Shown here in pieces: positions 20,331 to 57,832 of a DNA stretch of 64,000 nucleotides. The translations under genes were made by a program, and so were the position numbers. How positions within the stretch are numbered: the stretch's first letter is position 1; each line of letters opens with the position of its first letter. The notes beneath the pieces were generated by a model, which did no database searches, was not told the origin of the DNA, and saw nothing but the letters and a program-made list of their open reading frames with translations. The stretch comes from an uncultured Bacteroidia bacterium (GTDB lineage Bacteria; Bacteroidota; Bacteroidia; Bacteroidales; CAJPTX01), in the NCBI GenBank assembly GCA_938038735.1, contig CALHSW010000029.1:39829-103828 (forward strand), given 5' to 3'.

Positions 20331-21512
20331 ATGGCGAAAAAGGCGGAGAAGAAGGCGAAGGTGGCGCGAATACTCGTGGTGGATGATGAGCGGGCAATTC
20401 GTGATACGCTGAAGGGGATACTGGAAGACGAGGGTTACGATGTGACGGCAGCGGAGGATGGCGCAGAGGCGTTGGCGCTGTTTGAGAAGTCTCCTTACGA
20501 TGTTGTGCTCTGCGATATCAAGATGCCGAAGATGGATGGAGTAGAGGTGCTGGAGAAGCTGTTGGAGCTGGGTGATGTGCCGGTGGTGATGATTTCGGGT
20601 CATGGGACGATAGAGACGGCTGTGGATGCGATGCGGCGCGGGGCGTACGATTATATAGAGAAGCCATTGGACTTGAATCGGTTGCTGGTGTCGGTTCGCC
20701 ATGCGTTGGATCGGTCGCATTTGGTACGAGAGACGCGTGTCCTTCGCCAGAAGGTGCATGATTCGTATAGAATGATAGGAGAGTCGGCTGCGTTGAACGA
20801 AATTCGACGGATGATGGAGCGTGTGGCACCATCACCGGCGAGGGTATTGATAACAGGGGAGAATGGAACGGGCAAAGAGCTTGTGGCACATGGGATACAT
20901 GATCTTAGTGCCTGTTCAGGAGGACCCTTCCTAGAGGTGAATTGCGCGGCGATTCCATCAGAGCTTATTGAGAGCGAACTCTTTGGTCACGAGAAGGGTT
21001 CGTTTAGTGGGGCAGACCGACAGCGCATAGGAAAGTTTGAGTTGGCTGATGGCGGTACGCTCTTCCTTGATGAGATAGGTGATATGAGCCTTAGCGCGCA
21101 GTCGAAAGTGCTACGAGCCTTACAGGAAAACAGAATCACCCGTGTTGGAGGGGATAAGGACATTGAGGTGACCCCCAGGGTGATAGCGGCAACGAATAAG
21201 AATCTTCTTGAGGAGATAAAGAAGGGTACTTTCCGAGAGGATTTGTACCATCGGTTGAGCGTGATACTCATTCATGTGCCTCCGTTACGTGCGCGAGCTG
21301 AGGATATACCGCTGCTGGTAGATTATTTCTTGACGAAATTGGCGGCAGAGCAGGGGATTGCGAAACGTAAGATTGCCCCAGAGGCAGTACAACGATTGCA
21401 GAGAATGGAATGGAGAGGGAATATTAGAGAGCTTCGGAACGTGGTGGAGCGGTTGACTATTCTCTCCGACGATACCATCGACTTGCGGGATGTGGAGCAG
21501 TATGCCCTATAA
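20331..21512 (+). CDS. Sigma-54-dependent response regulator (receiver plus AAA+ domains) lacking a C-terminal HTH
   Basis: Receiver ILVVDDE..D..KMP. Walker A GENGTGKE. GAFTGA-loop variant EKGSFSGA. Sensor II RGNIRELRNVVER. The protein ends 15 aa later with no Fis-type HTH. Confidence 0.85.
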   Translation: MAKKAEKKAKVARILVVDDERAIRDTLKGILEDEGYDVTAAEDGAEALALFEKSPYDVVLCDIKMPKMDGVEVLEKLLELGDVPVVMISGHGTIETAVDAMRRGAYDYIEKPLDLNRLLVSVRHALDRSHLVRETRVLRQKVHDSYRMIGESAALNEIRRMMERVAPSPARVLITGENGTGKELVAHGIHDLSACSGGPFLEVNCAAIPSELIESELFGHEKGSFSGADRQRIGKFELADGGTLFLDEIGDMSLSAQSKVLRALQENRITRVGGDKDIEVTPRVIAATNKNLLEEIKKGTFREDLYHRLSVILIHVPPLRARAEDIPLLVDYFLTKLAAEQGIAKRKIAPEAVQRLQRMEWRGNIRELRNVVERLTILSDDTIDLRDVEQYAL

Positions 21513-23915: not shown

Positions 23916-23989
23916 GGCCCCGTAGTTCAGCTGAATAGAACGTCAGATTCCGGTTCTGAAGGTCGTGGGTTTGAATCCCGCCGGGGTCA
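23916..23989 (+). tRNA. tRNA-Arg (anticodon CCG)
   Basis: The cloverleaf folds by hand: acceptor GGCCCCG/CGGGGTC, anticodon stem TCAGA/TCTGA with loop TTCCGGT, T-arm GTGGG-TTTGAAT-CCCGC. CCA is not encoded. Confidence 0.95.
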
Positions 23990-24128
23990 CTTTTTGGGCG
24001 CACCGCGCAACCCACTCTAGTGGAGGCGGTTGATTGCGCATTGGCTTTGCGAAGTGCTATTTATGTCGTTTAGCTGCGTTCAAAAGCAAGGTTTTTAACT
24101 ACGTAACACTTAAACATTATAAAAACAG

Positions 24129-30206: not shown

Positions 30207-30287
30207 GGTTGTGATAGACTCTACGCCAGCCAAAGTCCGTAGCTTCAGGAGAGAATAAAAGGTGTGCGAGGGGAAGGGGTAGAAAAA

Positions 30288-30388
30288 GTGGGTAAGCGAC
30301 TTATATCGCACCGCTACAACTCTCTATCCTTGCTGCCTTCCGGCCCTGGGGAGGTTCAAGAGGAGCTGGTCGTATAAGACTTACCCAC
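30288..30388 (-). ncRNA. ffs: Signal recognition particle RNA (small 4.5S type)
   Basis: Minus-strand transcript GTGGGTAAG..CTTACCCAC closes a long helix. Its apical part CCAGGGCCGGAAGGCAGCAAGGATAG matches the conserved domain IV (compare E. coli GGUCCGGAAGGAAGCAGCCAAGGCAG). A TACCTTTG box lies just upstream and a T5 run just downstream. Confidence 0.8.
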
Positions 30389-30392
30389 GCCG

Positions 30393-30400
30393 CAAAGGTA
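30393..30400 (-). promoter_or_regulatory. -7 box TACCTTTG driving the SRP RNA
   Basis: The plus strand reads CAAAGGTA, 4 nt upstream of the predicted RNA 5' end. Confidence 0.6.
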
Positions 30401-31164: not shown

Positions 31165-31836
31165 GTGTCCATGACAGATAAGGACGCTATAGCCCTTCTG
31201 AGAGAGTGCATGCTTCCGGATCGGTGGGAGCGGTTATCGGTTGCTGCATACGCTAGAACGCGCTGGGTGACGGCTGCATTTGATAGTTTGTCGCATAGTC
31301 ATAATATCAATGCGGTGCTGCGCACCTGCGAGTGCCTAGGAATTCAAGATGTACACATTGTGACGGGCGGCGCATCGCTAAAAGAGTTTTCGGGAATCTC
31401 TCGGGGAGCGTTAGAGTGGTTGACGGTGCATGAGTACGCCACGCTTACAGAGCAGCTATCGGCCCTGCGTGCGGCGGGGTATCGCCTTGTGGGTACAGCG
31501 CCTCGTCAGGGAGCTAAGGGCGTGCCGGTGGCTGATTTTTCGCCTACAGTGGCGCCAGTCGCCTTACTATTCGGGCAGGAGAAATACGGCATCTCCGAGG
31601 AGGCGAAGGCCGCCATGGAGGAGAGCGTCTTTATACCAATGCCAGGGCTTACGGAAAGCCTCAATGTGTCGGTGGCCGCGGGAATGCTTTTAGGGTCTAT
31701 TCTTGAAAAAATGGAGCGGGAGGGGTTTGGCTATCGTCTAGATGAGGCGGCAGCCGACAGCCTTTTGCTCGCATGGCTCAAAAAAAGCGTGAAGAGTGCA
31801 GAGCTTATTCTAGCGCGGGGTGGGCGAGCTGGGTAG
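31165..31836 (+). CDS. SpoU/TrmH family RNA 2'-O-methyltransferase
   Basis: SPOUT C-terminal motifs LLFGQEKYGISEE and ESLNVSVAAGMLL. The start is GTG 31165 or ATG 31171. Confidence 0.8.
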   Translation: MSMTDKDAIALLRECMLPDRWERLSVAAYARTRWVTAAFDSLSHSHNINAVLRTCECLGIQDVHIVTGGASLKEFSGISRGALEWLTVHEYATLTEQLSALRAAGYRLVGTAPRQGAKGVPVADFSPTVAPVALLFGQEKYGISEEAKAAMEESVFIPMPGLTESLNVSVAAGMLLGSILEKMEREGFGYRLDEAAADSLLLAWLKKSVKSAELILARGGRAG

Positions 31837-31846
31837 GATAAAAAAA

Positions 31847-32818
31847 CTACAGCGCGGCATCCAGCAACGCTTTAGCTATGTGCCACATCATCACCGGGGG
31901 TACTGCGTTGCCTATCTGCCTATAGGCATCCAAATCGGACTTCGGAAGGATGAATGTTTCTGGAAACGACTGGATGCGTGCCGCTTCGCGAGGCGTGAAT
32001 CGGCGATAAATTTCCTTCTCTGCGTCTACCAAGAGGACGGGATCGCGGGAATTTATACTAGCCTTTGCGAGGTGTGAGGTAACCGTGAGGCAGGGTTGGG
32101 ATAGATCCTGCCATAGGCCGCGCTTCATATTGTTCTTTGCCCTCTTCATGCCCGCCACGGCCCGTGCCGAAAAGTAGTACTTAGGGGTGTCCAATGCCAA
32201 CGTATCAATAACGGCGGAGAGCGGCGCATACTCCGGAGGGGATAGCAGAGGCCTAGGGAATCTGTACGTAACGCCCATGTCGTTACGGATGCCAACGATA
32301 ATCACCCGCTCCCGCCTTTGAGGCACGCCGAATTCAACAGCTTTAACCAGCTGGTAAAAAACAGTATATCCAGCCTCCGAGAATTCCGAAACTACCCTTT
32401 TTATAATCTCGCCTTTCTTTAGCGTCATCAGCCCCTTGACGTTTTCGCAAATGAAAAAGGGAGGCCTTTTCTCCTGTAAAAAGCGCACTACCTCTTTATA
32501 TAGGTTGGCGCGTGCATCGTTGGTATCTTTTGTTGGGTTCACTGTGGAGAACGATTGGCAGGGAAATCCCCCCACCATTAGGTCCACATCTTTAAGGCTA
32601 CGAAAATCTACTGTCCGTACGTCTGCGCACCTCGCGGGATGAGAAAAGTTGGCGTTATAGGTCTCTACTGCCTTCTTGTCGGAGTCAACGGCAAATGTGA
32701 TTTCAAAAGGCAGCGCTGGGTAGTGCTTGGACAAGAACTCGAAGCCGCCCAGTAGCCCTAAATCGCTTCCCCCGCAGCCGCAGAATAGGGATGCCACCCT
32801 TAGCTTACTATCGTTCAT
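31847..32818 (-). CDS. dcm: DNA (cytosine-5)-methyltransferase, solitary
   Basis: Motif I SLFCGCGG, IV GGFPCQSFS, VI ENVKGL, VIII QRRERVIIVG, X GNAVPPVM. No nuclease gene is adjacent. Confidence 0.9.
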   Translation of the reverse strand: MNDSKLRVASLFCGCGGSDLGLLGGFEFLSKHYPALPFEITFAVDSDKKAVETYNANFSHPARCADVRTVDFRSLKDVDLMVGGFPCQSFSTVNPTKDTNDARANLYKEVVRFLQEKRPPFFICENVKGLMTLKKGEIIKRVVSEFSEAGYTVFYQLVKAVEFGVPQRRERVIIVGIRNDMGVTYRFPRPLLSPPEYAPLSAVIDTLALDTPKYYFSARAVAGMKRAKNNMKRGLWQDLSQPCLTVTSHLAKASINSRDPVLLVDAEKEIYRRFTPREAARIQSFPETFILPKSDLDAYRQIGNAVPPVMMWHIAKALLDAAL

Positions 32819-32872
32819 ATCGCTGCTCTATTACGGAGACCTCAGGTTAACACGAATAAGCAATTAGACGCT

Positions 32873-32880
32873 CAAAGTTA
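32873..32880 (-). promoter_or_regulatory. -7 box TAACTTTG for dcm
   Basis: The plus strand reads CAAAGTTA, ~55 nt upstream of the ATG at 32818. Confidence 0.5.
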
Positions 32881-33034
32881 TAATTTTTACATTAAAGCCA
32901 TACGTGTTGTCGTCTCTGCGACGGCGGTGCGCTTATGGCGCAGCCCTGTTGGGGTGGACTAGCGAAACTACATACATTTCAGGTCCCCTGCCAAAGCACT
33001 TAGTATTTTTTCGCCACCATGGAAGTGCCATGTT

Positions 33035-33415
33035 TTATCCGAAGCAGCGGTCTCCAAACTGGTTGACTGCTCGGAAGCGGTTGCGCCCCTCCTCATTGAA
33101 GTCTATGTAAGAAATGTCGAAAGCCACGCCATCACGCTGTCTTGTATAGCGGTAGCCGTCTACAAGGAGGTGATGGGTGGAGCGAAGTCGGTCAAAGTGA
33201 GTCTGCCCATCCGCGAGGTGCAGGTGGTCGATGATATTCGTCACATCATCGGTCTCTAACCTAGTATGCTGTCTCCAGAGAAAACTTGACAAATCCTCCG
33301 TCAGGAGGATCTCTTCATTATGGTGATGCAGCTCACCCCCACGCGAATAGTCCCTTCCCCCCTCTTGCAGGGGAACGATAAGAGCCTCTTCGTATTCGCT
33401 TTCGTAGAACTTCAT
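33035..33415 (-). pseudogene. hsdR: Type I restriction enzyme HsdR, N-terminal remnant (copy A, 126 codons)
   Basis: SEYEEALIVPLQEGGRDY..ELHHHNEEILLTEDLSSFL..YIDFNEEGRNRFRAVNQF follows the HsdR N-terminal pattern. It stops just before the expected PD-(D/E)xK nuclease and helicase regions. No hsdM or hsdS is nearby. Confidence 0.7.
33231..33415 (-). repeat. 185-bp direct repeat, copy A (hsdR 5' coding end)
   Basis: Aligns without gaps to 34868-35052, with 171 of 185 positions identical by hand count. The homology ends exactly at the ATG. Confidence 0.85.
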
Positions 33416-33506
33416 GTTTCGTGCGTTGAGTTTACCTGCATCTTGACAGCCTAATCAATAGGACTATGAGTGCAGACCATATATGTATCAGAAGTTACAT
33501 ACACTT

Positions 33507-33616
33507 GAAAAGCCGTTTTGGGGTACATATTCGCGCTGACGTGTACCCGAAAAGCCGTTTTCGGGTACATATTCGTGCTGACATGTACCCGAAAAGCCGT
33601 TTTAGGGTACACGTCC
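33507..33616. repeat. 42-bp tandem repeat, about 2.6 copies, each unit with two hairpins
   Basis: Units lie at 33507-33548, 33549-33590 and a partial one at 33591-33616. Units 1 and 2 differ at 3 of 42 positions. Each contains GGGTACA..TGTACCC and GAAAAGCCGTTTTC inverted repeats. Confidence 0.85.
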
Positions 33617-34756
33617 TTACTGCCTGACAGATTCAATACTTTCGGTATTAGTTGTTTCATCGATGCGATGATGAATAAACAAGTCCATCAATTTTGTATT
33701 GATGTAATAGTTGCTTCGTCCAAGTTTTACCTTTTCGAGCAACCCCATGTCAACAATTGTGTCAAGGTACTTTGTGGCGGTTTTGCGTTGCACCATCATG
33801 TCTTTCTGCATGTATTCAATCTTGGTGTAAGGGTGAAAGAATAGGTTGTTTACCAGTTCGTGCTTATACAGTCTACCAAAAATGGGACGCAATTTGTTTT
33901 TATATTCCTTCATAAGATCCGAAATCTGCTTGATAAGCTCTATGGTCTGCGTCGCAGTTTCTTCTATGCCTTTAAGCATGAATAACACCCACTGCTCCCA
34001 TTCCTCAAAGTTGTCGGTATTCTTGTCCCTTATACGTTGGATAAGGCGATAGTACTCCCCCTTGTTGTGCGTGATGTATCGGCTCAGATAGAGGATAGGC
34101 AGGTCCAACAGGTCGTTAATAATGAGGTACAGTATAATGATTATTCTCCCCGTTCTGCCATTGCCGTCATAGAAAGGGTGAATGCTTTCAAACTGATGGT
34201 GAATGATAGCCAGTTTTATTAAAGGGTCTACCTCGTGCAGACTCTTGTCGTTGATATATGCTTCAAGATTATCCAAGCAAAGCATAATCTCATCATTTTC
34301 TTGAGGTGGAGTATATACCACATCGCCGTTTGATGATTTCAACACTGTGCCGGGTTCCTTACGGAATCCGGCGGTATTACCCTCCAGCACCTGCTGTATC
34401 GCAAGAATGTCATTAAGTGTAAGGAGTTTATTCTTACGTGCGAGATTAAAACCGACTGACATAGCTTCCCGGTACAGTAGCACCTCTTTAGTAGCGACAT
34501 TGCTGATGTGCCCTTTCATATTCAAGTCGGCTTTATAGAGGTCGTCTGAAGTGGTGACAATGTTTTCTACAGCCGAACTGTCCAACGCTTCCTGCAACAC
34601 CAAAGTGTTGAGTAGTATGTTCTCATTTGGAATAGTCAGGGCTATCCCCTTCAATTCCGCCAGTCGTCGGTTGGCAGCATTTACTTGCTTTAATACAGCT
34701 TTTGTCTCAACATCGTATGGAAGAGGCAACCGTGGTATCTTGTATTTCGCGTCCAT
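33617..34756 (-). CDS. Fic family protein with an N-terminal Fic_N region and a C-terminal wHTH-like tail
   Basis: Fic core HPFYDGNGRTGR. An N-terminal SSAVEN matches the inhibitory [ST]xxxE[GN] motif. The probable start MDAKYKIPRLP is at 34756, although the ORF is open to 34828. Confidence 0.85.
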   Translation of the reverse strand: MDAKYKIPRLPLPYDVETKAVLKQVNAANRRLAELKGIALTIPNENILLNTLVLQEALDSSAVENIVTTSDDLYKADLNMKGHISNVATKEVLLYREAMSVGFNLARKNKLLTLNDILAIQQVLEGNTAGFRKEPGTVLKSSNGDVVYTPPQENDEIMLCLDNLEAYINDKSLHEVDPLIKLAIIHHQFESIHPFYDGNGRTGRIIIILYLIINDLLDLPILYLSRYITHNKGEYYRLIQRIRDKNTDNFEEWEQWVLFMLKGIEETATQTIELIKQISDLMKEYKNKLRPIFGRLYKHELVNNLFFHPYTKIEYMQKDMMVQRKTATKYLDTIVDMGLLEKVKLGRSNYYINTKLMDLFIHHRIDETTNTESIESVRQ

Positions 34757-34770
34757 ATCCCTTTGGCCGT

Positions 34771-35052
34771 TTAACTGTATATGGCATGCCGTACCAGGGC
34801 TGGGCAGAGCGTTGTGAGCCTTTCGCATGCCTCCCGGGCAATGCTTCTCGCCTCCTTGATACAGTCTATGGTATTCGTTACATCATCGGTCTCTAACCCA
34901 GTATGCTGTCTCCAGAGAAAACTTGACAAATCCTCCGTCAGGAGAAGCTCTTCATTATGGCGATGCAGCTCACTCCCACGCGTATAGTCCCATCCTCCCT
35001 CTTGCAGGAGAACGATAAGAGCCTCTTCGTATTCGCTTGCATAGAACTTCAT
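34771..35052 (-). pseudogene. hsdR: Type I restriction enzyme HsdR, N-terminal remnant (copy B, about 60 homologous codons then unrelated sequence)
   Basis: MKFYASEYEEALIVLLQEGGWDYTRGSELHRHNEELLLTEDLSSFLWRQH parallels copy A. It diverges after ~62 codons and terminates at 34771. Confidence 0.65.
34868..35052 (-). repeat. 185-bp direct repeat, copy B (hsdR 5' coding end)
   Basis: Partner of 33231-33415 in the same orientation. Confidence 0.85.
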
Positions 35053-35077
35053 AGTCGTAAATATTTATCTTGGGGGC

Positions 35078-35953
35078 TCAGTTTCCTTGCTCGTAGTAGT
35101 ACGAGTAGTCAATCCCCTTCATAAAAGTTTCTCTATCGTTTACCTTATCCGTAAGCGCAGAGTGTAGTAGACATTTCAAGCTTGTGGCATCTGCAACACT
35201 GGCCTTCATAGCTTCGAGATAAGTATATTTATTCACTTGGCTCCAGTCCACACACAGCCCAAGTTGCTTCTTGAGCATTAAGTCGAGCCAAATACGTGTG
35301 GCACGCCCATTACCTTCCCGAAAAGGATGAGCGATATCCATCTCCACATACTTATCAATAATCTGCTCCCATGTCTGCTCCGGCATTTGTTCTATGTTAG
35401 CAAGTGTGTTAGGTAGGTACTGAGCCATGGCAAACTGAAAGCCTCCTTTGGCGATATTGACTTGCCTGATTTGTCCTGCAAAGTCGTAAAGTCCACCGAA
35501 AAGATAGGCATGTATCTGTTGGAGGCCTTGCACCGTACCCACCTCGATGCTGTCTAAGAGGTTGCCTTCAAAAAGGGCATACGCCTTGGAGCGACTGCGC
35601 CCATCAATAGTCTCTTCTCCTCCCACAAACCACTCCACGAAACGCATAGCGCGATCGCTGGGAAAGCTCTGTGCAAGCGCCACGACTCCTTTGTCGTCAA
35701 GTGTATCCGTTAGGCGCTTTTTACCATCTGGCGCGAGGAGTTTCAACTGGTTAGTGGCACTAACCACTTCACTTCCCGCTCTCTTGAGTTTCGTCTTTAG
35801 ATACTTCCAGTAGTTCCTATTCTTATTGTAATCGTCTTGGTCGTTTAGTACCCCTATGATGTCCAGCGCAGAGAACCACCATTTCGACTCTGTCTCGTCC
35901 CAAATGGCTCGCACCTCTCGGTCATTGAAAAAACGTATTGAAATCTTGCTCAT
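35078..35953 (-). CDS. Bro-N-like N-terminal domain fused to a Fic (HPFREGNGR) domain
   Basis: The N-terminus [37 protein letters not shown] resembles the Bro-N/antirepressor-type domain. The Fic core is [12 protein letters not shown]. The C-terminal SYYYEQ lies near the class III inhibitory motif position. Confidence 0.8.
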
Positions 35954-36090
35954 GCGCTTCGTGTTGTTTTGTCAGGCATCTACGGCATACCATTTTCTTT
36001 TTCTTAGCCATAGTATGTCTAGCTTATTTCAGTCTGTTGATTGCATTCATATAGTGACTTGACAACAGATTAATGGTGCACATACCCATA

Positions 36091-36098
36091 CAAAGGTA
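36091..36098 (-). promoter_or_regulatory. -7 box TACCTTTG upstream of the Bro-N/Fic gene
   Basis: The plus strand reads CAAAGGTA, ~140 nt upstream of the ATG at 35953. Confidence 0.45.
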
Positions 36099-36502
36099 TC
36101 CCTTTTGTTTTGAAGAAACGAATTAAGGAGAGGAATTTACGATTCTTCGGTTGGTGAATGAAAAATCTTCACGGAGAAATGATTTAACTCTTGCGGAAGA
36201 GCGAAACGACATTTCCGTAAGGGGGCCAGCGTTTTCCCGTGGGGGATGACTGCCTCAGCAGGCTCAGTATGAAGTTGAGTATCTTGACCCATGAAGGGGG
36301 TGGCATGCGGAATTGAGCATCGCCTCCAGAAAACCGCCGTTGATTTTTGCCGGATTGCCGCAAGGTATCGGATGTCCTTAGGGTTTCTCTTTGAATAGCC
36401 GTAACCCCTTCTTGGTTACGGTGGAATGTCAGTATAGATGTCTAGCCTAAAGTGGGTATCCCGAGTAACCTCGTCCAGCAAACGATTATTTTTATTGCTC
36501 GT

Positions 36503-37687
36503 TTACATTATCTGATACGTAACGCTTTCGGGGAAAAGTAGCGGCATGCCTCGCTTTTTTATCTTAAAGCTATAGGTGTCGCCGCCTCCGCTAGAACGGC
36601 ATAGTAGTAGGTCAACAGTAATGAGAGCCGACTCTAACAACACGTCAAATTGTGATATAACAGGATTCTTGGTGTGTTCAATGCTGCGATATCGAAAAAA
36701 CTCCTTCCCATTTCTGTACTCATTATCAACGGCAATCCAGAAGGTCTCTCGATGCTTTTCTAGCAATCGTTCGTGTAGCTTGCGTAGAGACCACGTAGCC
36801 ACGTCTTCAATGTGTTCACCATGATGTTGCAGTTCTAGTAGTTCTTCAAGTTGATTGATAGACAACGCTAAGGCTTGGCTGTTCGCCCTTCCACACTGCA
36901 CCGTGTTATGGTAAGTGAGTTTTTGGGTCTTCTCATCTAAGTAACCATACCTTTCAACAATCCTAGAGCTTGACTTTAGGGCGCTGAGTTCCCAATCAGG
37001 AGCCTTTGTAAACAGAACATTCTTGTTTGATGTACGCTTCTCTCGGTGGCTTTTAAGCTCTATGCTCTTGTAGTCGGGCGTTGTTTTTGAGTTTTGGTGG
37101 ATACCGAGCATCGTTTCTATTGTTCGTCCGATACCCGTATCAGCTGTGACCTCAGATTGAAACCATTGTCCTCGTTGTTTACGAAAAAATTGTAGAAGCT
37201 CATCAGCCACTGATGTCCTCTTAGTGTATTGCTCCTCAATAAAATCTTTTAAAGGAGTGCAGATTGGGGAAGAAATCGCTTCTACAATATTTGTGCGTGT
37301 AATGTCAATCACGACTAGTTCTTCCTCATTGGCAAATATCGCATGAATGTCATCGGGTGCAGTGTGCGCCCCTAATCCATAAATCCACAATCGAGGATCC
37401 CCTTTTTTAGTTACGGGACGGTATAATGATGTCTTTGTCTTGTATTTTCCTATTTCATCAAGAATTACTGTTGGTACAAAATGCTTATGTTGAGGCCCTT
37501 GTTTTTGTCCCGCGTAATCGTGGATTCCTTTTTCTGAGAAGTAGGTTCTCATGCTGGAAGTAGCGTCTAAAATGCTCTTCTTCAATCCAGTGGAAGTAGT
37601 TTGAACGAGCGTGAAATCTATGCCTTGATTCACAAGAAATCCGATGTTTCTCTCTTCAAATGTTGTAAAAACCCGCATTCGCTCCAT
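36503..37687 (-). CDS. Restriction endonuclease: unassigned N-terminal domain plus a MutH/Sau3AI/MvaI-BcnI-like catalytic domain
   Basis: GIGRTIETMLGIHQNSKTTPDYKSIELKSH parallels the MutH segment KGWIGVLLEIWLG..PEQDFAALGVELKT, giving D205-x4-E210-x-K212. It starts 5 bp after the stop of the upstream C5 methyltransferase. Confidence 0.7.
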   Translation of the reverse strand: MERMRVFTTFEERNIGFLVNQGIDFTLVQTTSTGLKKSILDATSSMRTYFSEKGIHDYAGQKQGPQHKHFVPTVILDEIGKYKTKTSLYRPVTKKGDPRLWIYGLGAHTAPDDIHAIFANEEELVVIDITRTNIVEAISSPICTPLKDFIEEQYTKRTSVADELLQFFRKQRGQWFQSEVTADTGIGRTIETMLGIHQNSKTTPDYKSIELKSHREKRTSNKNVLFTKAPDWELSALKSSSRIVERYGYLDEKTQKLTYHNTVQCGRANSQALALSINQLEELLELQHHGEHIEDVATWSLRKLHERLLEKHRETFWIAVDNEYRNGKEFFRYRSIEHTKNPVISQFDVLLESALITVDLLLCRSSGGGDTYSFKIKKRGMPLLFPESVTYQIM

Positions 37688-37692
37688 TTCTT

Positions 37693-39564
37693 CTACCGAA
37701 TTTTCCTCAGTATCTCGTTCGCCACGGCCCGCGCCATCAGCGGCGGCACGGCGTTGCCCACCAGCGTGTACTGCGGGATCTCATCCTTGCGCTTATTGCC
37801 CCCCGTTTGGCGCTTCCCCTGGAACACAAAGCTATCGTCAAACGACTGCAAGCGGGCCATTTCTCGCACCGTCAGCGGGCGGTGCGACGCGTAGTGGATG
37901 AAATCGTCGGGCATGGTGCATACCGTGGGGCTTTGCCCCTCGGCGCGCAGCACCGTGTAGTTGCGCTTATCTGAATCCACACCCTCCTCCCGCAGCTGCC
38001 CCTTGGCGGCGTCGTAGTCACCATGCTCGGCTATAATCCGCAGCCGGCGGCGTACGTTATCGCTCTGCAGGCTCGATTGGTGGTTGAAAAGCTCCATCCG
38101 CTGCTGCCGTTGCGGGTCCTGTAAATCCTCCGCATCCCGCACGTAGAAGGGACTCTCCTCAAACGTGAAGCGGTGCTGTAGCCTACCGCGGCGCGACCAC
38201 TCTGCGTATAGCCTACCGTTGCGCTGCGGAGAACTCCACTCCGAGCGGCTGCGAAGCAATCCTTTGTACTCCGCTATGATAGGCACTTCGCGGTACTCCT
38301 CTGCCGTCTCTCCGTTCCCCACCATATCCAAATCCCACAGCGCTTCGTACACCGTCACCCGCTCATTCTCGTGCACCGTCGGCGCAATGCCCGTTATGAG
38401 TGCTTGGTCCTTCCGGCAGCCGATGAACAGCACCCTCTCTCGGTTCTGCGGAACACCGTAGTCTGCGGCTTTCACCACTATGGGCCGCTCTATTCTGTAC
38501 AGGCGTACCGCCTCAGCCGCACGCTGCAGCCCATCGAGGTCTTCCCCTTTGAAAATGCGTCCCAATGCGTTGACGCAATCGTCAAAGCTGAAAGCGTATA
38601 ACTGTAGCGCACGCTCCATCTCGTCTAATTCGTTCTGCTCTTGGGTCATACCCCGCATGGCGTGTAGCGAGTTGGCTATCCGCTGCACCAGCTGTTCATC
38701 GTCCAGGGCGTGTATAGCATCGTTTAGCCCGGCGGTGAGATGGTCATTATTCACATTGCAGTGTGCCTTCAGGTCTATCAGAGCCTTTGCAATCTCCTCC
38801 CGCTTCCCCTGCTCTTTCAGTAGCAGGATGCCGTGGCGCACAGTGTTCACATCCTGGTTGCTTTTACTCACCTTGTACGCAATGGACTGCGTCACCACCT
38901 TGAGCTGCTCCTCAAGAAGGCCGAAGAACGCTCCGTAGAGCCGCCCGAACTCCTCCGGCACACCCGCTTCCATTTCTAGCTTTGCGAGCCACACCTTTAC
39001 CATGAACGGCGACATGTAGCGAGGCAAAGCCTCTCCTGCAAAAGAGAGAAAAGAAGGGAGCTGCTGCGCATCAAGTATTGAGCGGATCCCCCCTAGTATT
39101 TCATTTACGAACTTGCCCTGCTCCTTGGTGAGGATCCCTTTGACGTTCTCCATTACGAAGTACTTCGGGCGTAGCGCCTTGATTACCTTGAGGTAATGGT
39201 AGAAGAGGTTATCCCGCTTATCGAATCGCTTTCGCATGCCTGCCAGGCTGAACGATTGGCAGCTCGGTCCCCCCGTCACTACGTCTACGGCTCGTGATCC
39301 TATCCGCCGCAGCAGGTTGGGTAGAAAATCATCCTCTGTGATGTCTTGGCAAAGGAATTGGGTAGATAGCCCAAGCTGGCGGTTGTACCGCGCTACGTGC
39401 GTCAGTTCGCAGTTGCGATTAATGTCAGAGGCCAGCAGAAAATCGTAGCACTTATCGTCAGTGAAGGCCTGTAGAAAACCCTCGCTGAATCCACCCGCCC
39501 CTGCGAATAGATCCACGTAGGTTACGCCCGTGCGATTACGTATGAAATCCTTCCGTTCTGCCAC
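37693..39564 (-). CDS. DNA (cytosine-5)-methyltransferase, 623 aa, with a ~190-aa insertion between motifs VI and VIII
   Basis: Motif I DLFAGAGGFSEG, IV GGPSCQSFS, VI ENVKGIL (aa 139-141), VIII QNRERVLFIG (aa 373-377), X GNAVPPLM. GTG start. Confidence 0.9.
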   Translation of the reverse strand: MAERKDFIRNRTGVTYVDLFAGAGGFSEGFLQAFTDDKCYDFLLASDINRNCELTHVARYNRQLGLSTQFLCQDITEDDFLPNLLRRIGSRAVDVVTGGPSCQSFSLAGMRKRFDKRDNLFYHYLKVIKALRPKYFVMENVKGILTKEQGKFVNEILGGIRSILDAQQLPSFLSFAGEALPRYMSPFMVKVWLAKLEMEAGVPEEFGRLYGAFFGLLEEQLKVVTQSIAYKVSKSNQDVNTVRHGILLLKEQGKREEIAKALIDLKAHCNVNNDHLTAGLNDAIHALDDEQLVQRIANSLHAMRGMTQEQNELDEMERALQLYAFSFDDCVNALGRIFKGEDLDGLQRAAEAVRLYRIERPIVVKAADYGVPQNRERVLFIGCRKDQALITGIAPTVHENERVTVYEALWDLDMVGNGETAEEYREVPIIAEYKGLLRSRSEWSSPQRNGRLYAEWSRRGRLQHRFTFEESPFYVRDAEDLQDPQRQQRMELFNHQSSLQSDNVRRRLRIIAEHGDYDAAKGQLREEGVDSDKRNYTVLRAEGQSPTVCTMPDDFIHYASHRPLTVREMARLQSFDDSFVFQGKRQTGGNKRKDEIPQYTLVGNAVPPLMARAVANEILRKIR

Positions 39565-39861
39565 TAATGCCTCTCTTTCCGCCCGATTGGTTGTCCCGCT
39601 GCGCCCCGCGAAGGTAGCAAAAAGGGACTATTGCATAAAAGTTTATTCGTTAGGCTATACGGGCAATCGTGCTTAGCCGAAACCCTTCTTATTTACCTTG
39701 AAATGCTAGTACGAATGTCCAACCGGCAAGGCTAACCCTCGCTGCCTAGTCTATAGCTCCAGCCCATGCCGCGGGCTGGAGCAGGGAGTGCCATCCTGTG
39801 CATCGTGCCAGCGTTAAGTAGGGGGCTGCAGCGGCTTCTATTGGGAGAGCTGTTATCTCCG

Positions 39862-39894
39862 TACAAATAGGGCGGGACTCGCGCCCCGCCCTAT
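39862..39894 (-). terminator. Terminator of the pyrD-like gene
   Basis: The minus strand reads ATAGGGCGGG-loop-CCCGCCCTAT followed by TTGT, ~65 nt after the stop. Confidence 0.55.
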
Positions 39895-39959
39895 AGCTAA
39901 CATCTTTGATGGTTGCTGACCCGCAGCTGTTTTTCGCCCCGCTGGCGGGAAAAGGTTGC

Positions 39960-52861: not shown

Positions 52862-55216
52862 TTATTTCCAAATGTAACGGAGCTTTGCGCCAAAGCTTCT
52901 GCCCGGCAGCGGGCGGTTGAACTCCGAGAGGGCGCGGGCGTTGGTGAGGTTCTTGACTTTGCACGATAGAAATAGCCTTTGGTTGAAAAAGCTGTACTCA
53001 AGACCCATGTCCAGCAGGAAGCTGCGCGGGATGCGTCTTTTTGTATTCGCAGTGATTTCAAAATCGTAGAGATACTCCTCAATGAAAGCCAGATCGGCGA
53101 AGAGCCGTAGGTTTTGCCCTTGGCCGCCGAAAGGGTTTTCCTTGTGGAATTCGAGACCTGTGTTGGCCATGAGGTAGGGGATGTTAGGCATGCGTAGCCC
53201 TTTCGTGGCATTGGGAAGATTAGACCCCTGCTCATGCTCGCGAACGTCGCGTAGGTCTTGAAAGGTAACATTGCCGTAGCCGTAGAGGAAGGAGAAGATG
53301 TCGGCTTTGACCTCGAACTCTGCGCCTAGGGTTCGCATTTCGCCGAAGTTTTGGTACTGAGCACCGAGAATCCCCTTGGTGAAGCGGATCATGTCCTGGA
53401 GATACATGTAGAACCCATTGAGTTCAATCTGCAGGTTGGAGTGATGGATGCCCGTAAGGTCAAACAGGATGCCTGCATTGAGGTTGGCGTTGCGCTCAGG
53501 ACGAAGCTGTTCTGATGGGGTTATGGTATAGCCATCGCCGAGCAGCTCAAACTCCGATGGGATACGCACATCGTAGCCACCCGAAAGTTTAGCCATGAGC
53601 GAACGGGTAAAGCGAAAGCGAAGCGCATCGCTACATCCGAGGCTTTTCTTATCCACATGAATGTTTTCGGGTGGAGTATTGGTGTAGATGTTTTGGAAGG
53701 TGGTGCGCATGCTGTACCAGTACCCTCTGGCGGTAAACGAGTTGAGGAAACGGTCGTTAGCCGAACGGAAGTCGTAGGTGATACCGATAACCCAACTCCT
53801 CATGCGTGAGTTGAAGTCGGTTTTTTTGCCGAGGCTTTTTTCTTTTAAGGGGTTGGATGGCGTCCCATTGGCGAGCGAGAAAAGAGAGTTAACGCTGATG
53901 GTGTGCTGCTCTGCAATGAGGTACTCAAGGTTCAGCTTGTTGAGGTAGGTGAACTTATTGTTGTTGGAGAGTGAAGCGAAACGGGTGGCCAGCTCGCCGC
54001 CATAAGGCGATGGGGAGGGGTAGGGGTTGCCCTGCCAATCGTACCAAGTTTTGGCAGTGTCAATAAGTGCGTATCGCGTAAAGGCGGCGGCATGCGTGAA
54101 GTCAAGGTCAAGCCCCGCGAGTAGAAAGTCTTTCTTTTTAAGGGTGTTTCCCAAGAGGTAGAGGCGCGAGGTGGAGTGCGCCTGCCGAATGTCATATTCT
54201 ACGCCCTGCACCTCTTTGTACGTATTGATGAATACAGGCTCAAGCTCGATCTCATCAAACCACCATTTTCTGGCCTTAATACTTCCCCCAATTACCAATT
54301 TTTGGAAATTATCGTGTTGGCGTTTGATTTTCAATCCCTTCACGTATGGAGATTCCATGGTGTAGCAATTGTCGGCGTAGGTGTAGGTGCCGCCGAGGCC
54401 GAGGATAATCCCAGACTCTTTGATGTTGCGCTTGAAGACCGCGGTGGCCTTGTTGACATTAAACGATTCGTGTTGGTAGCTAAGATCTAGGTACCTGTCG
54501 GGGTACTCCTTGATTACTACATTGACCGCGCCGCCCATGGAGGAGCCGCCGAACTTTGCGGGTACCACCCCCTTGAAAATCTCGATGCGGTCAATCATGT
54601 CGATGGGTATGTCGTTGATGTCGATGAAGTCCGATTGGTCGCCGAGCGGCACCTCATCAATGAAGAATCCCACGCGCTTGCCCTCAAGCCCCCGGAGCGA
54701 AATGCGCGAAGCGCTGCCCACCCCGCCGGAGGCGCGGATGGCTATGCCCGTCGTCTTGGCCAGAAGGCTCTCAATGTCGCTCACGGAACCCTGCAGCTGG
54801 TGCATGCTGATAACGGATATAGGCATGGCCCGTTCACGTATTTCTCGGGCTTTGCTCTTGCCAATGACGAGAACGTCCTTCATGGATTGCTCCTCCTGCT
54901 GGAGCTGCACGATGAGTCGTTTTTTCTCTTTGCCCACTGTGACGCTGAGCGATTGCGTTTTGTACCCCATGTACTGTATCGTTAGCGTGTGGGTTCCTAC
55001 AGGAACGTTGGTGAAAACGAATTTGCCATTTGCATCGGAAACCTCGCCCCGCTTGAGTTCTTGCATGTAGACCGTGGCCCCGATGAGATTGTTGCCGTTC
55101 TCATCAATAATGGACCCTTCAATTAGGCCTACACCTTCTTGCGCTGTAGCTGCGCTGCATAGGAAGAGTAGGAGCGATAGTAGCAAGCTGTTTGATTTAA
55201 TGATTTTGCCAGTCAT
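52862..55216 (-). CDS. TonB-dependent outer-membrane receptor with an N-terminal carboxypeptidase-regulatory-like domain
   Basis: Signal peptide LLLSLLLFLCSAATAQE, a CarbopepD_reg-like block GSIIDENGNNLIGATVYMQE..FVFTNVPVGTHTL, a plug domain, and a long beta-barrel. The start is ATG 55216. Confidence 0.85.
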   Translation of the reverse strand: MTGKIIKSNSLLLSLLLFLCSAATAQEGVGLIEGSIIDENGNNLIGATVYMQELKRGEVSDANGKFVFTNVPVGTHTLTIQYMGYKTQSLSVTVGKEKKRLIVQLQQEEQSMKDVLVIGKSKAREIRERAMPISVISMHQLQGSVSDIESLLAKTTGIAIRASGGVGSASRISLRGLEGKRVGFFIDEVPLGDQSDFIDINDIPIDMIDRIEIFKGVVPAKFGGSSMGGAVNVVIKEYPDRYLDLSYQHESFNVNKATAVFKRNIKESGIILGLGGTYTYADNCYTMESPYVKGLKIKRQHDNFQKLVIGGSIKARKWWFDEIELEPVFINTYKEVQGVEYDIRQAHSTSRLYLLGNTLKKKDFLLAGLDLDFTHAAAFTRYALIDTAKTWYDWQGNPYPSPSPYGGELATRFASLSNNNKFTYLNKLNLEYLIAEQHTISVNSLFSLANGTPSNPLKEKSLGKKTDFNSRMRSWVIGITYDFRSANDRFLNSFTARGYWYSMRTTFQNIYTNTPPENIHVDKKSLGCSDALRFRFTRSLMAKLSGGYDVRIPSEFELLGDGYTITPSEQLRPERNANLNAGILFDLTGIHHSNLQIELNGFYMYLQDMIRFTKGILGAQYQNFGEMRTLGAEFEVKADIFSFLYGYGNVTFQDLRDVREHEQGSNLPNATKGLRMPNIPYLMANTGLEFHKENPFGGQGQNLRLFADLAFIEEYLYDFEITANTKRRIPRSFLLDMGLEYSFFNQRLFLSCKVKNLTNARALSEFNRPLPGRSFGAKLRYIWK

Positions 55217-55317
55217 GTTTCGTGAAGTTGAGTCTGAAGTTTTGTTTTGAACCAAAGGATTAGAGAAGTCTGAAGGCAACTTCTTAGCATTTGGAGATGC
55301 CGATCTTCTATTTGTCT

Positions 55318-55938
55318 CTATTTGAAAGGTTTAAGCAGTTCTTTCCAGCCAGCCAGGCTGAAGTGGGCGTATTGGATGAGCGCCTGCTTGATTTCAGAGT
55401 CTGAAAACTCATCATGCAAGACTAGCTCCCGCAGAATGTTTGTCCAGGTAGAGCATAGTATGTGAATAAAGAATGGAGAGAGCTGAGCATCAATATGCGG
55501 CCATCGGCTTTTCATTATGGAAAGGTACTCCTCCCCGATTTTGATTTGTTCGGCAAGAATGCGTTCTAGGTATCTGTCGAGCGATGTGCCAGCTGCCTGA
55601 AAAAGCAGAAGCTTTAGTTCAGGACGGAACGTTTTGACGAGAGATACCGTTTGGTTTAGATAGTCAATGGAAAGACTAGGCGTTGTGAAAACCTCAAGGT
55701 TGAGGAATCGTTCGTCATTGTGCGAGTGCATGTGGCGGTTAAGCTTTGTTAGAAGCGGCTGCAGCACGGCGCAAAAGAGTTCATCCTTGCTTTTGAAATA
55801 TTTGTAGATATTCCCAACGGATACGTTCGCCTTGCTGGCGATCGTACGAATGGAGGTGTCTTTGACCCCTTGACTTATAAACTCTTTTCTAGCTGTAAGT
55901 AGAATGCGTTGGAGAACGTTTTCTTTTAGCGTTTGCAC
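55318..55938 (-). CDS. TetR/AcrR family transcriptional regulator
   Basis: HTH TSIRTIASKANVSVGNIYKYFKSKDELF. GTG start. Confidence 0.85.
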   Translation of the reverse strand: MQTLKENVLQRILLTARKEFISQGVKDTSIRTIASKANVSVGNIYKYFKSKDELFCAVLQPLLTKLNRHMHSHNDERFLNLEVFTTPSLSIDYLNQTVSLVKTFRPELKLLLFQAAGTSLDRYLERILAEQIKIGEEYLSIMKSRWPHIDAQLSPFFIHILCSTWTNILRELVLHDEFSDSEIKQALIQYAHFSLAGWKELLKPFK

Positions 55939-55984
55939 GGCGTTTGGCGGTTTAAAAGTGAACGTTTTTCATTTTTGTTCATAG

Positions 55985-56018
55985 AAAAAGCGCACTGCCA
56001 ATTGGCAGTGCGCTTTTT
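55985..56018. terminator. Bidirectional hairpin terminator
   Basis: AAAAAGCGCACTGCCA-ATT-GGCAGTGCGCTTTTT. Confidence 0.7.
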
Positions 56019-56147
56019 CAAAAAGAGGGTTCTTCCCCTCCCGATATTTATTGTACTCCTAAACACGGTTTACAAATTTACGGCACAAAGGTATTGAGGC
56101 CCAGCGTGTAGGGCAATCCCCAGAATTGAGGAATTTTTGTTCCTATT

Positions 56148-56187
56148 GATAAACAAAACGCTCCGTGGCTTCCGCCGCGGAGCGTTT
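56148..56187 (-). terminator. Rho-independent terminator (repeated module, copy 2)
   Basis: The minus strand reads AACGCTCCGCGG-loop-CCACGGAGCGTT followed by TTGTTTATC, 30 nt after the stop at 56216. It shares GATAAACAAAACGCTCCG and CCGCGGAGCG with copy 1. Confidence 0.75.
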
Positions 56188-56215
56188 TAAAAACTACAGT
56201 TATGAAGAGAGTAAG

Positions 56216-57832
56216 TTAAATCGCTGTAGTTGTTTCAATGGTAGGCGAGTCTTGGCTCGATGGTGTCGCCCCTTGCTCAGAGCGCGTTGGGGCTGTGCGA
56301 TTTGCGGGTTTGCTCGGTGGGGCGAGGTAGCCATCGCGCATTTGCCAAACGGATCTTGAAAGATTTTTGCCACGAATGGTGCGTCTTTCGGTGTAGCCTT
56401 CGGCTTTGCTTGCGGCTTTTGGCGTTAACTTAATGAGGGTTCCCTCTGGGAGGTAGATGATGGCGTGGGCATTAAGCGGGATGGGCGAGCTGCGTTTTTT
56501 GAGCGAGGTCTTTATGCTAGCAATCGTCGCGGAGGCTGTGTCGATGGAGGGAGCGTAGAGCTCTTCTAGCGACACTTCGTCTTCGTCTGCAGTTGATAGC
56601 GCTTCGTAGGCAATTCGAATTGACGCGATGCTGTCGTCTGTGCTACGGATGTCAATTCTTGGTGCTATGGAAATATTGAAGGAGGAGTCGGCGCTGCTAT
56701 TGTCAATTCTCCTGAGGTCAATACGCAGCGTGTCGTTGGCGCGCATGGGTATCTCATACTCCGTTTCGCAGCTCGTAATCCGTTTGTTGGCCCTCCAATA
56801 GGTGAAGGGGGTGAGGGTGGCGAGGACGAGTATGCTCGCGATCCAGAAGATGAGCATGGTGACGCTTACCACCTTTGCGATGCGGAACTCAATAAGCATA
56901 CGCATGCCCGCGATGAGGATTGCTGCCAGCGGTACGATACATACCCCCCAGATGGCTATCGCAATGATGTACGGTGAGATGTCCCAGCCGAGGAGCGCAA
57001 TGACTGACCCTATGGTGCTACCGAATAGCTCGTCAGCCAGCGATACATCGCCGATGAGCTTAACGCCAAGCAGCACAGTAATGGCTATTGCTCCTATAGC
57101 CCCCGCAAGAATAAACGCAACACCGAGTATCTTCACAACGAGCTTGACAAGCCCAATGGCAAGGAAGGCGAGAAAATTCCCGAACGATTTCGCAAAGTCG
57201 GATGATCGATTTTTGTTTTTGCCCTTTAGGGTTTCGCGTGCGGCCTGGAAGCTCCGGTTGGCTTCGGCGCGAATGGAGTCAATGGTGATGGGTTTGCCCT
57301 GCATACGGAGTTTTTGGAGGGGGGTTCGGGCTGGCGGCACGGCGGCCCAAAGGACGATGTAGACGATGATGCCAATGCCGTAGCAGAAGGAGCCGAGAAT
57401 AAAGAGGAGCCGAATGAGGGCCGCGTTGGTTCCTAGCCTAGCGGCGATGCCGGCGCATACGCCGCTGATTATTTTGCTATCAACATCACGGTAAAGCCGC
57501 ATGCGGTTTCGTTCCCTTTCGTAGGCTTCCTCGGAGCTTTCCCTGGCGTTGCTGGCGGACTCTCGCTGCTGGTCGGCATCGATGTCCTCGGGTTGCCCCA
57601 GAATGGCTATCACCTCGTTGACAGTGCTTAAAGAAATAGGTTCGTTGCCCTTCTGACGTTCTGAAAGGAGTTCCCCAATGCGGGCCTCGATGGCTTCGTA
57701 CGTCTCCTTCGCCTCGTTCGATTGCCCAAAGCGGTCAATGAGCGCATCCAGGTAGCTGCGCAGGGCGCGGTAGGCATCCTCGGTGAGTTGGTAGGGGTAG
57801 CCGTTGAGGCTAATGGTAATCACGCTTTCCAT
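56216..57832 (-). CDS. PspC domain membrane protein, long form (538 aa)
   Basis: PspC motif LYRDVDSKIISGVCAGIAARLG..LIRLLFIL, multiple TM helices, and a helical N-domain paralogous to the small pspC gene product. Confidence 0.8.
   Translation of the reverse strand: MESVITISLNGYPYQLTEDAYRALRSYLDALIDRFGQSNEAKETYEAIEARIGELLSERQKGNEPISLSTVNEVIAILGQPEDIDADQQRESASNARESSEEAYERERNRMRLYRDVDSKIISGVCAGIAARLGTNAALIRLLFILGSFCYGIGIIVYIVLWAAVPPARTPLQKLRMQGKPITIDSIRAEANRSFQAARETLKGKNKNRSSDFAKSFGNFLAFLAIGLVKLVVKILGVAFILAGAIGAIAITVLLGVKLIGDVSLADELFGSTIGSVIALLGWDISPYIIAIAIWGVCIVPLAAILIAGMRMLIEFRIAKVVSVTMLIFWIASILVLATLTPFTYWRANKRITSCETEYEIPMRANDTLRIDLRRIDNSSADSSFNISIAPRIDIRSTDDSIASIRIAYEALSTADEDEVSLEELYAPSIDTASATIASIKTSLKKRSSPIPLNAHAIIYLPEGTLIKLTPKAASKAEGYTERRTIRGKNLSRSVWQMRDGYLAPPSKPANRTAPTRSEQGATPSSQDSPTIETTTAI

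Follow-up and report, generated by a model that had tools for sequence, protein, structure and literature searches.

Decay of a type I operon around its Fic genes

We analyzed a 64-kb stretch of DNA from an uncultured oral Bacteroidales bacterium (64,000 nucleotides (nt), referred to below as the window) and focused on the interval between trmH (stop at 31836) and a pyrD-like gene (stop at 39960), two convergent core genes whose shared terminator region is the site of an island. We conclude that this interval is very probably a strain-variable defence locus made of four independent modules, in which the Fic genes are cargo of a type I restriction-modification (R-M) operon that has since decayed. 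The island contains a solitary methylase (M1), two 5' stubs of hsdR, two Fic genes (SoFic and Fic2), a 42-nt hairpin array, a type I leader, and a restriction endonuclease (REase) gene next to a second methylase (M2). The original prediction had described a restriction and toxin island transcribed from one strand, and the open reading frame (ORF) list, Pfam and PADLOC placed its listed elements at or near the positions it gave; every sizeable ORF in 31837-39959 is on the minus strand. The features, in window positions, are as follows.

31847-32818, minus: M1, solitary C5 cytosine DNA methyltransferase, 323 amino acids (aa), PF00145 7.5e-73
32819-33054, minus: M1 upstream region and junction J1 (33048/33055), with 3.36 kb of hsdR body and downstream DNA deleted
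33055-33415, minus: hsdR' a, pseudogene stub, first 361 nt of hsdR, within ORF 33035-33415
33416-33616, minus: SoFic-hsdR intergenic region with the hairpin array (array 33507-33632, overlapping the SoFic stop)
33617-34756, minus: SoFic-type class II Fic AMP-transferase, 379 aa (the frame in the ORF list runs to 34828)
34780-34863, minus: hsdS', stub, last 84 nt of the specificity gene, directly upstream of SoFic
34864-35052, minus: hsdR' b, stub, another copy of the 5'-terminal 189 nt of hsdR, direct-repeat partner of 33227-33415
35078-35953, minus: Fic2, Bro-N plus class III (NmFic-type) Fic AMP-transferase, 291 aa, PADLOC candidate family PDC-S04
35954-36011, minus: deletion scar, where the 3'-terminal ~20 nt of hsdS and intergenic DNA (35954-35991) meet the 5'-terminal 20 nt of hsdM (35992-36011)
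36012-36452, minus: retained type I operon leader/promoter region, now upstream of Fic2
36453-37699, minus: strain-variable REase module, coding sequence 36503-37687, 394 aa, MvaI/BcnI family
37693-39564, minus: M2, C5 cytosine DNA methyltransferase, 623 aa, PF00145 8.6e-52, TIGR00675 1.2e-45
39565-39959: right border, non-coding, from the M2 start to the pyrD-like stop

At least three versions of the interval occur within the species (V1, V2 and V3). V3 is represented by L062 (~97% identical to the window; 96.6% in the flank), in which an intact type I system lies between M1 and M2, with hsdM (532 aa), hsdS (373 aa) and hsdR (1089 aa) encoding complete Pfam domain sets. REase and SoFic are absent from L062, and Fic2 is present only as two short pieces of its 5' end. 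V1 comprises the window, L061 (99.95% identical) and L134 (94.5% identical), all of which carry the REase gene, and the hsdM|hsdS deletion scar was found in the window and L134; the L134 contig ends inside Fic2, before J1, and L061 stops before that scar. V2 comprises L145 and L146 (about 96% identical), which have the layout of the window without REase, an M2 of 644 aa and a shorter hsdR' a stub, and which share both deletion scars of the window. All or parts of the same arrangement were seen in the independent assemblies L061, L134 and L145-L148; thus, it is not an assembly artefact. That the island was built on the scaffold of a decayed type I locus had been predicted, and L062 bears this out, holding intact hsdM, hsdS and hsdR at exactly the site of the stubs in the window.

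We aligned the core of the island to L062 and found that all of its non-coding and fragmentary pieces map onto the type I operon. Collinearity between the two sequences holds as far as L062 position 11884 and resumes at 15246; this jump forms J1, a junction also present in L145. The stub hsdR' a matches REase_I in PADLOC (6.2e-12) and HSDR_N in Pfam (2e-4), is 89% identical to the 5' end of the intact L062 hsdR, and is collinear with hsdR of the more distant L149. The scar at 35954-36011 aligns to L062 15931-15875 and 18599-18618, and the same scar is found in L134 and L145. Read along the minus strand, the order is leader and 20 nt of hsdM (36452 to 35992), ~20 nt of hsdS and a spacer (35991 to 35954), Fic2, hsdR' b (35052 to 34864), hsdS' (34863 to 34780), SoFic, the hairpins, and hsdR' a (33415 to 33055). 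What survives of the type I genes is 20 nt of hsdM, 20 + 84 nt of hsdS, and 189 + 361 nt of hsdR. The stubs are ~85% identical between strains, compared with a synonymous divergence (dS) of 0.11-0.14, so they diverge at about the neutral rate. We conclude that the type I system of the window is dead.

The middle of the island contains a second set of stubs. The hsdS' stub is 88% identical to the 3' end of L062 hsdS (16004-15921) and abuts hsdR' b at a joint at 34864/34863; the ORF at 34771-35052 consists of a short HsdS C-terminal match (PADLOC Specificity_I, 2e-4) plus an HsdR N-terminal fragment. The two hsdR' copies form a direct repeat (D1) of 189 nt (33227-33415 and 34864-35052) that is 93% (92.6%) identical and not due to chance. 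Copy b of the window is only 85.2% identical to copy b of L145, and copies a and b of the window are identical at positions 109-153 of the stub, which indicates that they were probably partly homogenised by gene conversion in the window.

The leader of the operon was retained. It is 92.6% identical to the region upstream of L062 hsdM, and its proximal ~190 nt, including a -7-type box TACCTTTG at 36098-36091, are kept even in the distant L149 allele. This stretch had been described as a 550-bp ORF-free spacer: the 549 bp at 35954-36502 indeed hold no ORF of at least 60 aa, but they are in fact largely the type I leader and promoter region and are free only of ORFs of that size. With hsdM-hsdS deleted, Fic2 begins about 58 nt downstream of the former hsdM start codon and has likely captured the promoter of the operon. 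In the distal part of the leader we also noted a 51-aa ORF (36137-36292, minus strand; MGQDTQLHTEPAEAV...) without a domain match, which is open in L145, L062 (70 aa) and L134 (60 aa) and absent from the distant L149 allele.

SoFic and its hairpin array are cargo of the hsdS-hsdR slot

In an unrelated organism (L149-L153) we found an intact operon with the order hsdM-hsdS-SoFic-hairpins-hsdR. The window from 34863 to 33055 matches the hsdS-SoFic-hairpins-hsdR part of this operon as a single collinear block (85.6% identical), with hsdS' inside the unbroken 1.8-kb match, and the SoFic proteins are 91% identical. This single collinear match to an intact operon identifies SoFic and the hairpins as a cargo cassette of the slot between hsdS and hsdR. 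The original prediction had the island built by successive replacement; the Fic genes, however, are not later replacements of the type I operon but cargo embedded in it. In some strains of this organism (L151 and L152), two ORFs of 917 and 186 aa stand in place of an uninterrupted hsdR (7799-11067 in L151), as if the same decay were just beginning there.

SoFic itself appears intact. It contains Fic_N (Pfam, 5.5e-25), Fic (1.6e-19) and SoFic-like_C (6.1e-23) domains and matches the PADLOC SoFic model (2.1e-115); both the catalytic motif HPFYDGNGRTGR and the inhibitory SSAVEN motif are intact. The ratio of nonsynonymous to synonymous divergence (dN/dS) is 0.04, and the start codon is backed by a 99%-identical protein of 379 aa (P0241).

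The hairpin array has a 42-nt period and 2.5-3 tandem copies, and is unique in the window, with 0 chance matches expected. It consists of three tandem units of alternating inverted repeats (GTACCC / GGGTAC), and its predicted RNA fold reaches -53 kcal/mol (z = -5.6). The 14-16-nt segment GTCAGCNCGRATAT between the inverted repeats is near-invariant even in alleles that are about 15% apart. The array is conserved in L062 (15680-15793), L145 (~11140-11300), L149 (8290-8440) and the distant L149-L153 alleles, always between the SoFic stop and the hsdR start, and does not occur after Fic2. The array itself showed no Rfam match, no conserved reading frame and no trailing U-run, and Rfam returned no known RNA family across 32800-36600, the only hit being a chance sroH match (E = 0.77). 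Possible roles for the array are protein binding, RNA processing and attenuation. A 69-aa ORF over the array (33451-33660) was considered as an AS1-like antitoxin and rejected, because L150-L153 preserve the nucleotide palindromes without preserving its reading frame.

Fic2 is a second intact Fic gene with stub-flanked homologues elsewhere

Fic2 matches the PDC-S04 model PDLC04841 (5.6e-158) from end to end, residues 2-289 aligning to model positions 3-290 of 292, and contains Fic (4.5e-13) and Bro-N (1.4e-5) domains in Pfam. It passes the NCBIfam NmFic equivalog NF046029 (267.5 bits, cutoff 230). The catalytic Fic motif is intact and dN/dS is 0.13; the C-terminal motif, SYYYEQ, has a Q at the position of the canonical G/N. 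More than 8000 homologues are 78-97% identical. Fic2 was not found embedded in a functional defence operon: its host operon is deleted in the window, and the L062 operon keeps only a Fic2 remnant.

Fic2 belongs to the same hsdS-hsdR slot as SoFic. Its nearest homologues outside the genus (L139-L144, Porphyromonas-like; L135-L138, beside cas3) stand alone, with no R-M genes, and are flanked by stubs of an hsdS 3' end (135 or ~40 nt) and an hsdR 5' end (59 or ~6 nt). Stub length and genomic context vary among them, a sign that the operons decayed separately. An 82%-identical homologue in L154 has no stubs, so stubs are not universal in the family. In L135-L138, the homologue is 94% identical (7001-7876 in L135), has the hsdS stub of ~40 nt, and lies directly upstream of a type I-C CRISPR-Cas operon (cas3, cas5d, csd1, cas7, cas4, cas1). 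A phage-carriage search returned no viral relatives for Fic2, and for M1 only relatives at no more than 36% identity.

PrrC occupies the hsdS-hsdR slot of EcoprrI and is held in check by EcoprrI. An analogous arrangement, in which the Fic proteins remain wired to R-M as guarded back-up effectors under the control of the methylases or the REase, would be in line with the origin of both cassettes in that same slot, with the co-orientation of all genes, and with the finding that no sampled strain of the species has retained the type I system and the Fic genes together. We consider this highly unlikely. Both Fic genes remain under purifying selection even though the window, L134 and L145 have lost the type I system; Fic2 homologues that are 82-94% identical stand alone in other genomes, each Fic protein has its own inhibitory-helix motif, and SoFic has been reported as a single-gene system (PMC12249575). 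In addition, REase presence varies independently of the Fic genes, and no mechanism connects C5 methylation with AMPylation. Purifying selection without the type I system, together with homologues found alone elsewhere, argues that the Fic genes act autonomously. The suggestion that the components of the island may cooperate is supported only for M2 and REase, which form a conserved pair, and is not supported for the methylases and the Fic proteins, where nothing links cytosine methylation to Fic activity.

A resident methylase is paired with a compositionally foreign endonuclease

The two methylases lie at the ends of the island. M1 matches MTase_II in PADLOC (3.5e-84), and its best solved relative is M.HaeIII (9.5e-41, full length). 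It is 97-99.7% identical to L062 M1, with dN/dS of 0.08, and diverges like a core gene. No variant has a nuclease gene adjacent to M1, whose neighbors in the window, L062, L145 and L146 are trmH on one side and DNA of the type I locus on the other. Orphan methyltransferases are known to remain after restriction genes are lost, and R-M units can move without mobility genes of their own. Judged by its divergence and context, M1 is an old resident orphan methylase.

M2 matches PF00145 in two stretches (15-157 and 361-622), and the C5 methyltransferase motifs FAGAGG, GPSCQSF, ENVKG, QNRER and GNAVPP are visible. Between motifs VI (ENV) and VIII (QxRxR) it has an insertion of ~200 aa (residues ~158-360; window 38482-39093), and the length of 625-626 aa of its homologues in L130 and L132 suggests that the insertion is conserved there. 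The REase start codon follows the M2 stop by 5 nt. REase matches PF15515 (4e-64), MvaI (8.7e-11) and BcnI (2.1e-5), and its model matched MvaI in Foldseek; the PF15515/MvaI/BcnI match covers the C-terminal ~225 aa. The PD...ELK residues P204, D205, E210 and K212 are invariant in 28 homologues. An N-terminal beta-rich domain of ~165 aa (window 37195-37687) is present in all homologues of ~392 aa and had no significant match among solved structures. The AlphaFold model of REase has a mean pLDDT of 61, and only the N-terminal domain is confident (about 80-90).

A search for REase homologues gave 1925 matches; the proteins among the matches listed have about 392 aa and share 59-69% identity with REase. 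L130 and L132 carry the REase homologue (392-393 aa) in unrelated contexts, each time preceded by a C5 methyltransferase of 625-626 aa that is 55-66% identical to M2. Since every REase homologue whose gene context was read has this partner, M2 and REase form a conserved two-gene type II R-M unit with M2 as the predicted cognate methylase.

The composition of the two genes differs sharply in the window. GC content at third codon positions (GC3) is 41.5% for REase, the lowest of 37 ORFs, compared with 70.2% for M2 and 62.4 +/- 6.5% for host ORFs (n = 32), whereas the methylase and endonuclease have similar GC3 in L130 and L132 (44.7/38.3 and 58.5/63.4). The methylase-endonuclease pair is thus compositionally chimeric in this lineage. 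The REase module begins two codons ahead of the M2 stop and ends 50 nt past the REase stop, and its 1247 bp in the window are replaced by an unrelated 111 bp in L062, L145 and L146. We considered this filler as a remnant of REase and rejected it, its alignment score being no better than that of shuffled sequences.

A different explanation for these data is that REase was the original partner of M2 and was merely lost in L062 and L145, the gap in composition being typical of the gene family itself. In its favor, every M2 homologue has a member of this REase family as its partner, two strains that are about 5% apart both carry REase, and the REase-less M2 alleles have lost the canonical stop and run 21 codons into the filler. 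Although we take this explanation seriously, we lean against it. The family does not have such a gap in L130 and L132, as described above. When the window is compared with L134, REase has only about half the dS seen for M2 and the flanks, and REase presence does not track the M2 tree, since L134, which has REase, is closest to L145, which lacks it. Nor would a plain deletion explain the unrelated 111-bp filler. The observations fit an old acquisition of the methylase-endonuclease pair, loss of the endonuclease, and later capture or spread of a foreign cognate endonuclease gene.

Setting, borders and composition of the island

The interval is empty in more distant relatives. L001 and L063 (about 72% nt identity) are collinear with the window on both flanks, and their trmH and pyrD-like genes are adjacent and convergent, 252 bp apart, with zero traces of island sequence. 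The two are near-identical and represent one island-free lineage of more distant oral bacteria. Hence the gene set is not conserved in all relatives, and the two bounding genes are neighbors where the island is missing, in agreement with the predicted island, which is an insertion relative to this lineage. The right border (39565-39959) had no similarity to the 252-bp intergenic region of L001. The nearest relatives of the window are metagenomic contigs and one oral 'Bacteroidia' metagenome-assembled genome; TrmH had nothing above 61% amino-acid identity in the species-representative genome collection, and exact-protein look-ups for trmH, Fic2 and SoFic returned zero matches.

The core was predicted to be AT-rich, and sliding-window analysis confirmed this: GC content is 44.7% across 33250-37690, compared with 54.2 +/- 3.6% in 1-kb windows outside the island, and the lowest-GC 1-kb windows of the entire 64 kb fall in the core. 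Tetranucleotide deviation of the core reaches z = 4.6, the most deviant stretch of the window. In contrast, M1 and M2 have host-like composition (z about 0).

These data bear on the idea that the whole interval is ancestral to the clade and was cleanly deleted in the L001/L063 lineage. The host-like GC3 and tetranucleotide usage of M1 and M2, their strain divergence, which equals that of the flanking core genes, and the finding of a single island-free lineage are all compatible with it. We nevertheless regard it as unlikely, because nowhere else in the window are AT content and tetranucleotide deviation as high as in the core, because the type I operon, the Fic cassettes and the methylase-endonuclease pair each occur in unrelated contexts in other taxa, and because the L001 intergenic region has no deletion scar.

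As the original prediction had noted, no integrase, transposase, tRNA or flanking repeat marks the borders. Domain searches found no integrase or transposase in the island or its flanks, a repeat search detected no direct repeats at the borders, and there is no tRNA within 8 kb of the island, the nearest being at 23916 and 51318. With flanks that are syntenic with L001, the island does not have the integrase or transposase, tRNA target and flanking repeats of a classical mobile genomic island. The shared orientation of the genes is statistically unremarkable, with a chance of about 0.12-0.25 for 3-4 source modules. Scans for sigma-70 promoters and intrinsic terminators gave hits no more frequently than in shuffled sequence; among promoter-type signals only the Bacteroidetes-type -7 box was informative, and a -7-like box TAACTTTG is also found at 32880-32873 in the M1 upstream region.

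A proposed history of the locus

We propose that the ancestor of the locus had the order M2 - leader - hsdM - hsdS - Fic2 - hsdR' (189 nt) - hsdS' (84 nt) - SoFic - hairpins - hsdR - M1, with both Fic genes as cargo cassettes embedded between hsdS and hsdR of one type I operon. The second cassette would have been stacked by duplicative recombination, leaving the 189-nt repeat and the hsdR'|hsdS' joint. Two candidate routes are single-crossover integration of a circularised hsdS'-SoFic-hsdR' fragment, and tandem duplication followed by exchange of the cargo. In the lineage of the window and L145, two illegitimate deletions would then have taken hsdM-hsdS and the hsdR body, killing the type I system. 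The sister lineage of L062 may have followed the reciprocal path, keeping hsdMSR and deleting the Fic genes. In the Fic deletion of L062, nt ~240 of Fic2 meets the hairpin nearest the SoFic stop, with TAAAA as microhomology; this joint is best explained if L062 derives from a locus with Fic2 upstream of SoFic and the hairpins. Clear microhomology is found only at this deletion, and the other junctions look illegitimate. The history differs from the successive replacement that had been predicted, which appears to be mostly wrong: the interval is better described by two deletions, one duplicative stacking of Fic cassettes and one indel of the size of REase.

In its present form, the locus most likely works as four independent parts. 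M2 would be a long-term resident that methylates a short cytosine-containing site, and REase, compositionally foreign and present only in some strains, would cut unmethylated copies of that site on incoming DNA. Family resemblance suggests a CCNGG-type site for both. SoFic and Fic2 would be auto-inhibited AMP-transferases of classes II and III that act as AMPylating toxins in abortive infection, a role attributed to them from their relatives.

Several observations weigh against this reading of the locus. The polarity of insertion depends on the single outgroup lineage of L001 and L063, which are near-identical, and ancient presence followed by loss in that lineage is possible. The stacked ancestor is reconstructed from three derived states and is intact in no sampled strain. 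With regard to the Fic proteins, PDC-S04 is a candidate defence family only, and SoFic scored 354.8 bits against NF046030, under the NCBIfam equivalog cutoff of 550, making it a relative and not an equivalog. The direction of the REase change is ambiguous: the composition of REase points to late arrival, whereas the REase-less M2 alleles, reading 21 codons past the family stop, look derived, which needs loss and re-gain, or replacement. Finally, the window does not avoid CCNGG; word counts of CCWGG, CCSGG and GGCC in the window gave no guide to specificity.

A broader and rather doubtful extension of these results is that, in oral and gut Bacteroidales, the hsdS-hsdR slot of one family of type I R-M operons is a landing pad where Fic cassettes settle. 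Their hsdS 3' and hsdR 5' ends would act as homologous arms for their spread, and they could be stacked and would regularly outlive the operon; the operon and its cargo would be antagonistic or redundant, and M2 would have been re-armed by a foreign nuclease. If so, cassettes move between genera by homologous recombination and leave relics of the form 'hsdS stub - Fic - hsdR stub', the reciprocal outcomes within one species reflect antagonism or redundancy between host operon and cargo, and a resident orphan such as M2 can capture a foreign nuclease because the genome is already protected.

Relation to known systems

Defence genes are often embedded in operons for type I R-M (bioRxiv 10.1101/2024.01.29.577857; PMC11411939). 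The 'guilt-by-embedding' candidates of Payne et al. 2024 include PADLOC PDC-S04 (bioRxiv 10.1101/2024.01.29.577857), the family that Fic2 matches, and TgvAB is embedded in the type I R-M operon of Vibrio cholerae VPI-2 (PMC11411939). The locus resembles such operons in the position of the cargo between hsdS and hsdR, with the intact form of hsdM-hsdS-SoFic-hsdR seen in L149-L153. It differs from them in that the operon of the window is dead and reduced to stubs, the cargo having inherited its promoter, as far as the position of Fic2 behind the leader suggests, and in that two stacked cassettes are split by a duplicated hsdR'/hsdS' joint.

SoFic is known as a toxic single-gene anti-phage AMPylase that acts through abortive infection, with examples in Shewanella (SoFic) and E. 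coli (EcSofic) (PMC12249575). The protein of the window shares with these the Fic_N, Fic and SoFic-like_C domains, the HxFx(D/E)GNGRxxR motif and an N-terminal SxxxEN. Unlike those systems, the window has no conserved AS1-like small antitoxin ORF downstream of SoFic, where the three-hairpin array is found instead, and relatives of its SoFic are embedded in a type I operon rather than standing as single genes.

REase is like MvaI and BcnI in the sequence and fold of its C-terminal part, in its PD...ExK motif and in the tight coupling to a methylase gene. It is unlike them in its extra N-terminal domain, in the size of its partner M2 with the ~200-aa insertion, and in the discordant composition of the two genes. 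M1, without a nuclease, and M2, as it stands in L062 and L145, are like other orphan methyltransferases, but M2 is both an orphan and re-paired with a compositionally foreign nuclease within one species. In lacking integrase, transposase, tRNA and terminal repeats, the island is also like R-M units that carry no mobility genes.

Every module is thus of a known kind, and the island adds to the R-M and defence hotspots without mobility genes. Its more interesting features are the stacking of Fic cassettes, the reciprocal decay within one species, the 'stub-Fic-stub' relics across genera and the compositionally foreign nuclease next to a resident methylase; these are evolutionary details and not a new mechanism, and they leave our understanding of how the systems work unchanged. 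The locus offers a natural example of defence-locus turnover without mobile-element machinery: an operon eroded by deletion while selection keeps the embedded toxin genes, the opposite outcome in a sister strain, and a restriction gene that comes and goes beside a permanently resident methylase. It also carries warnings for annotation. A Fic gene that lies between short stubs of hsdS and hsdR is what remains of a type I operon, the short 'hsdR' ORFs found here are pseudogene stubs, and methylase-nuclease pairs can be chimeric.

Other observations in the window

The window encodes a Bacteroidales-type small signal recognition particle RNA at 30286-30393 and a transfer-messenger RNA. Another low-GC stretch was found at 55-56 kb, where 1-kb windows (55000-56250) have 44-45% GC and the ORF at 55318-55938 has a GC3 of 52%; the ORF at 9800-10462 has a GC3 of 46.6%. 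Across the whole window GATC is strongly depleted (88 observed and 219 expected, a ratio of 0.40), and CCGG, CGCG, GGCC and TCGA are moderately depleted (ratios of about 0.64), which suggests long exposure to restriction systems encoded outside the island. Homology between the window and L145 ends at 24046, beside a tRNA-Arg gene (23916-23990), and beyond this breakpoint L145 carries a further Fic-domain gene (20573-21140); the breakpoint looks like a second strain-variable site.

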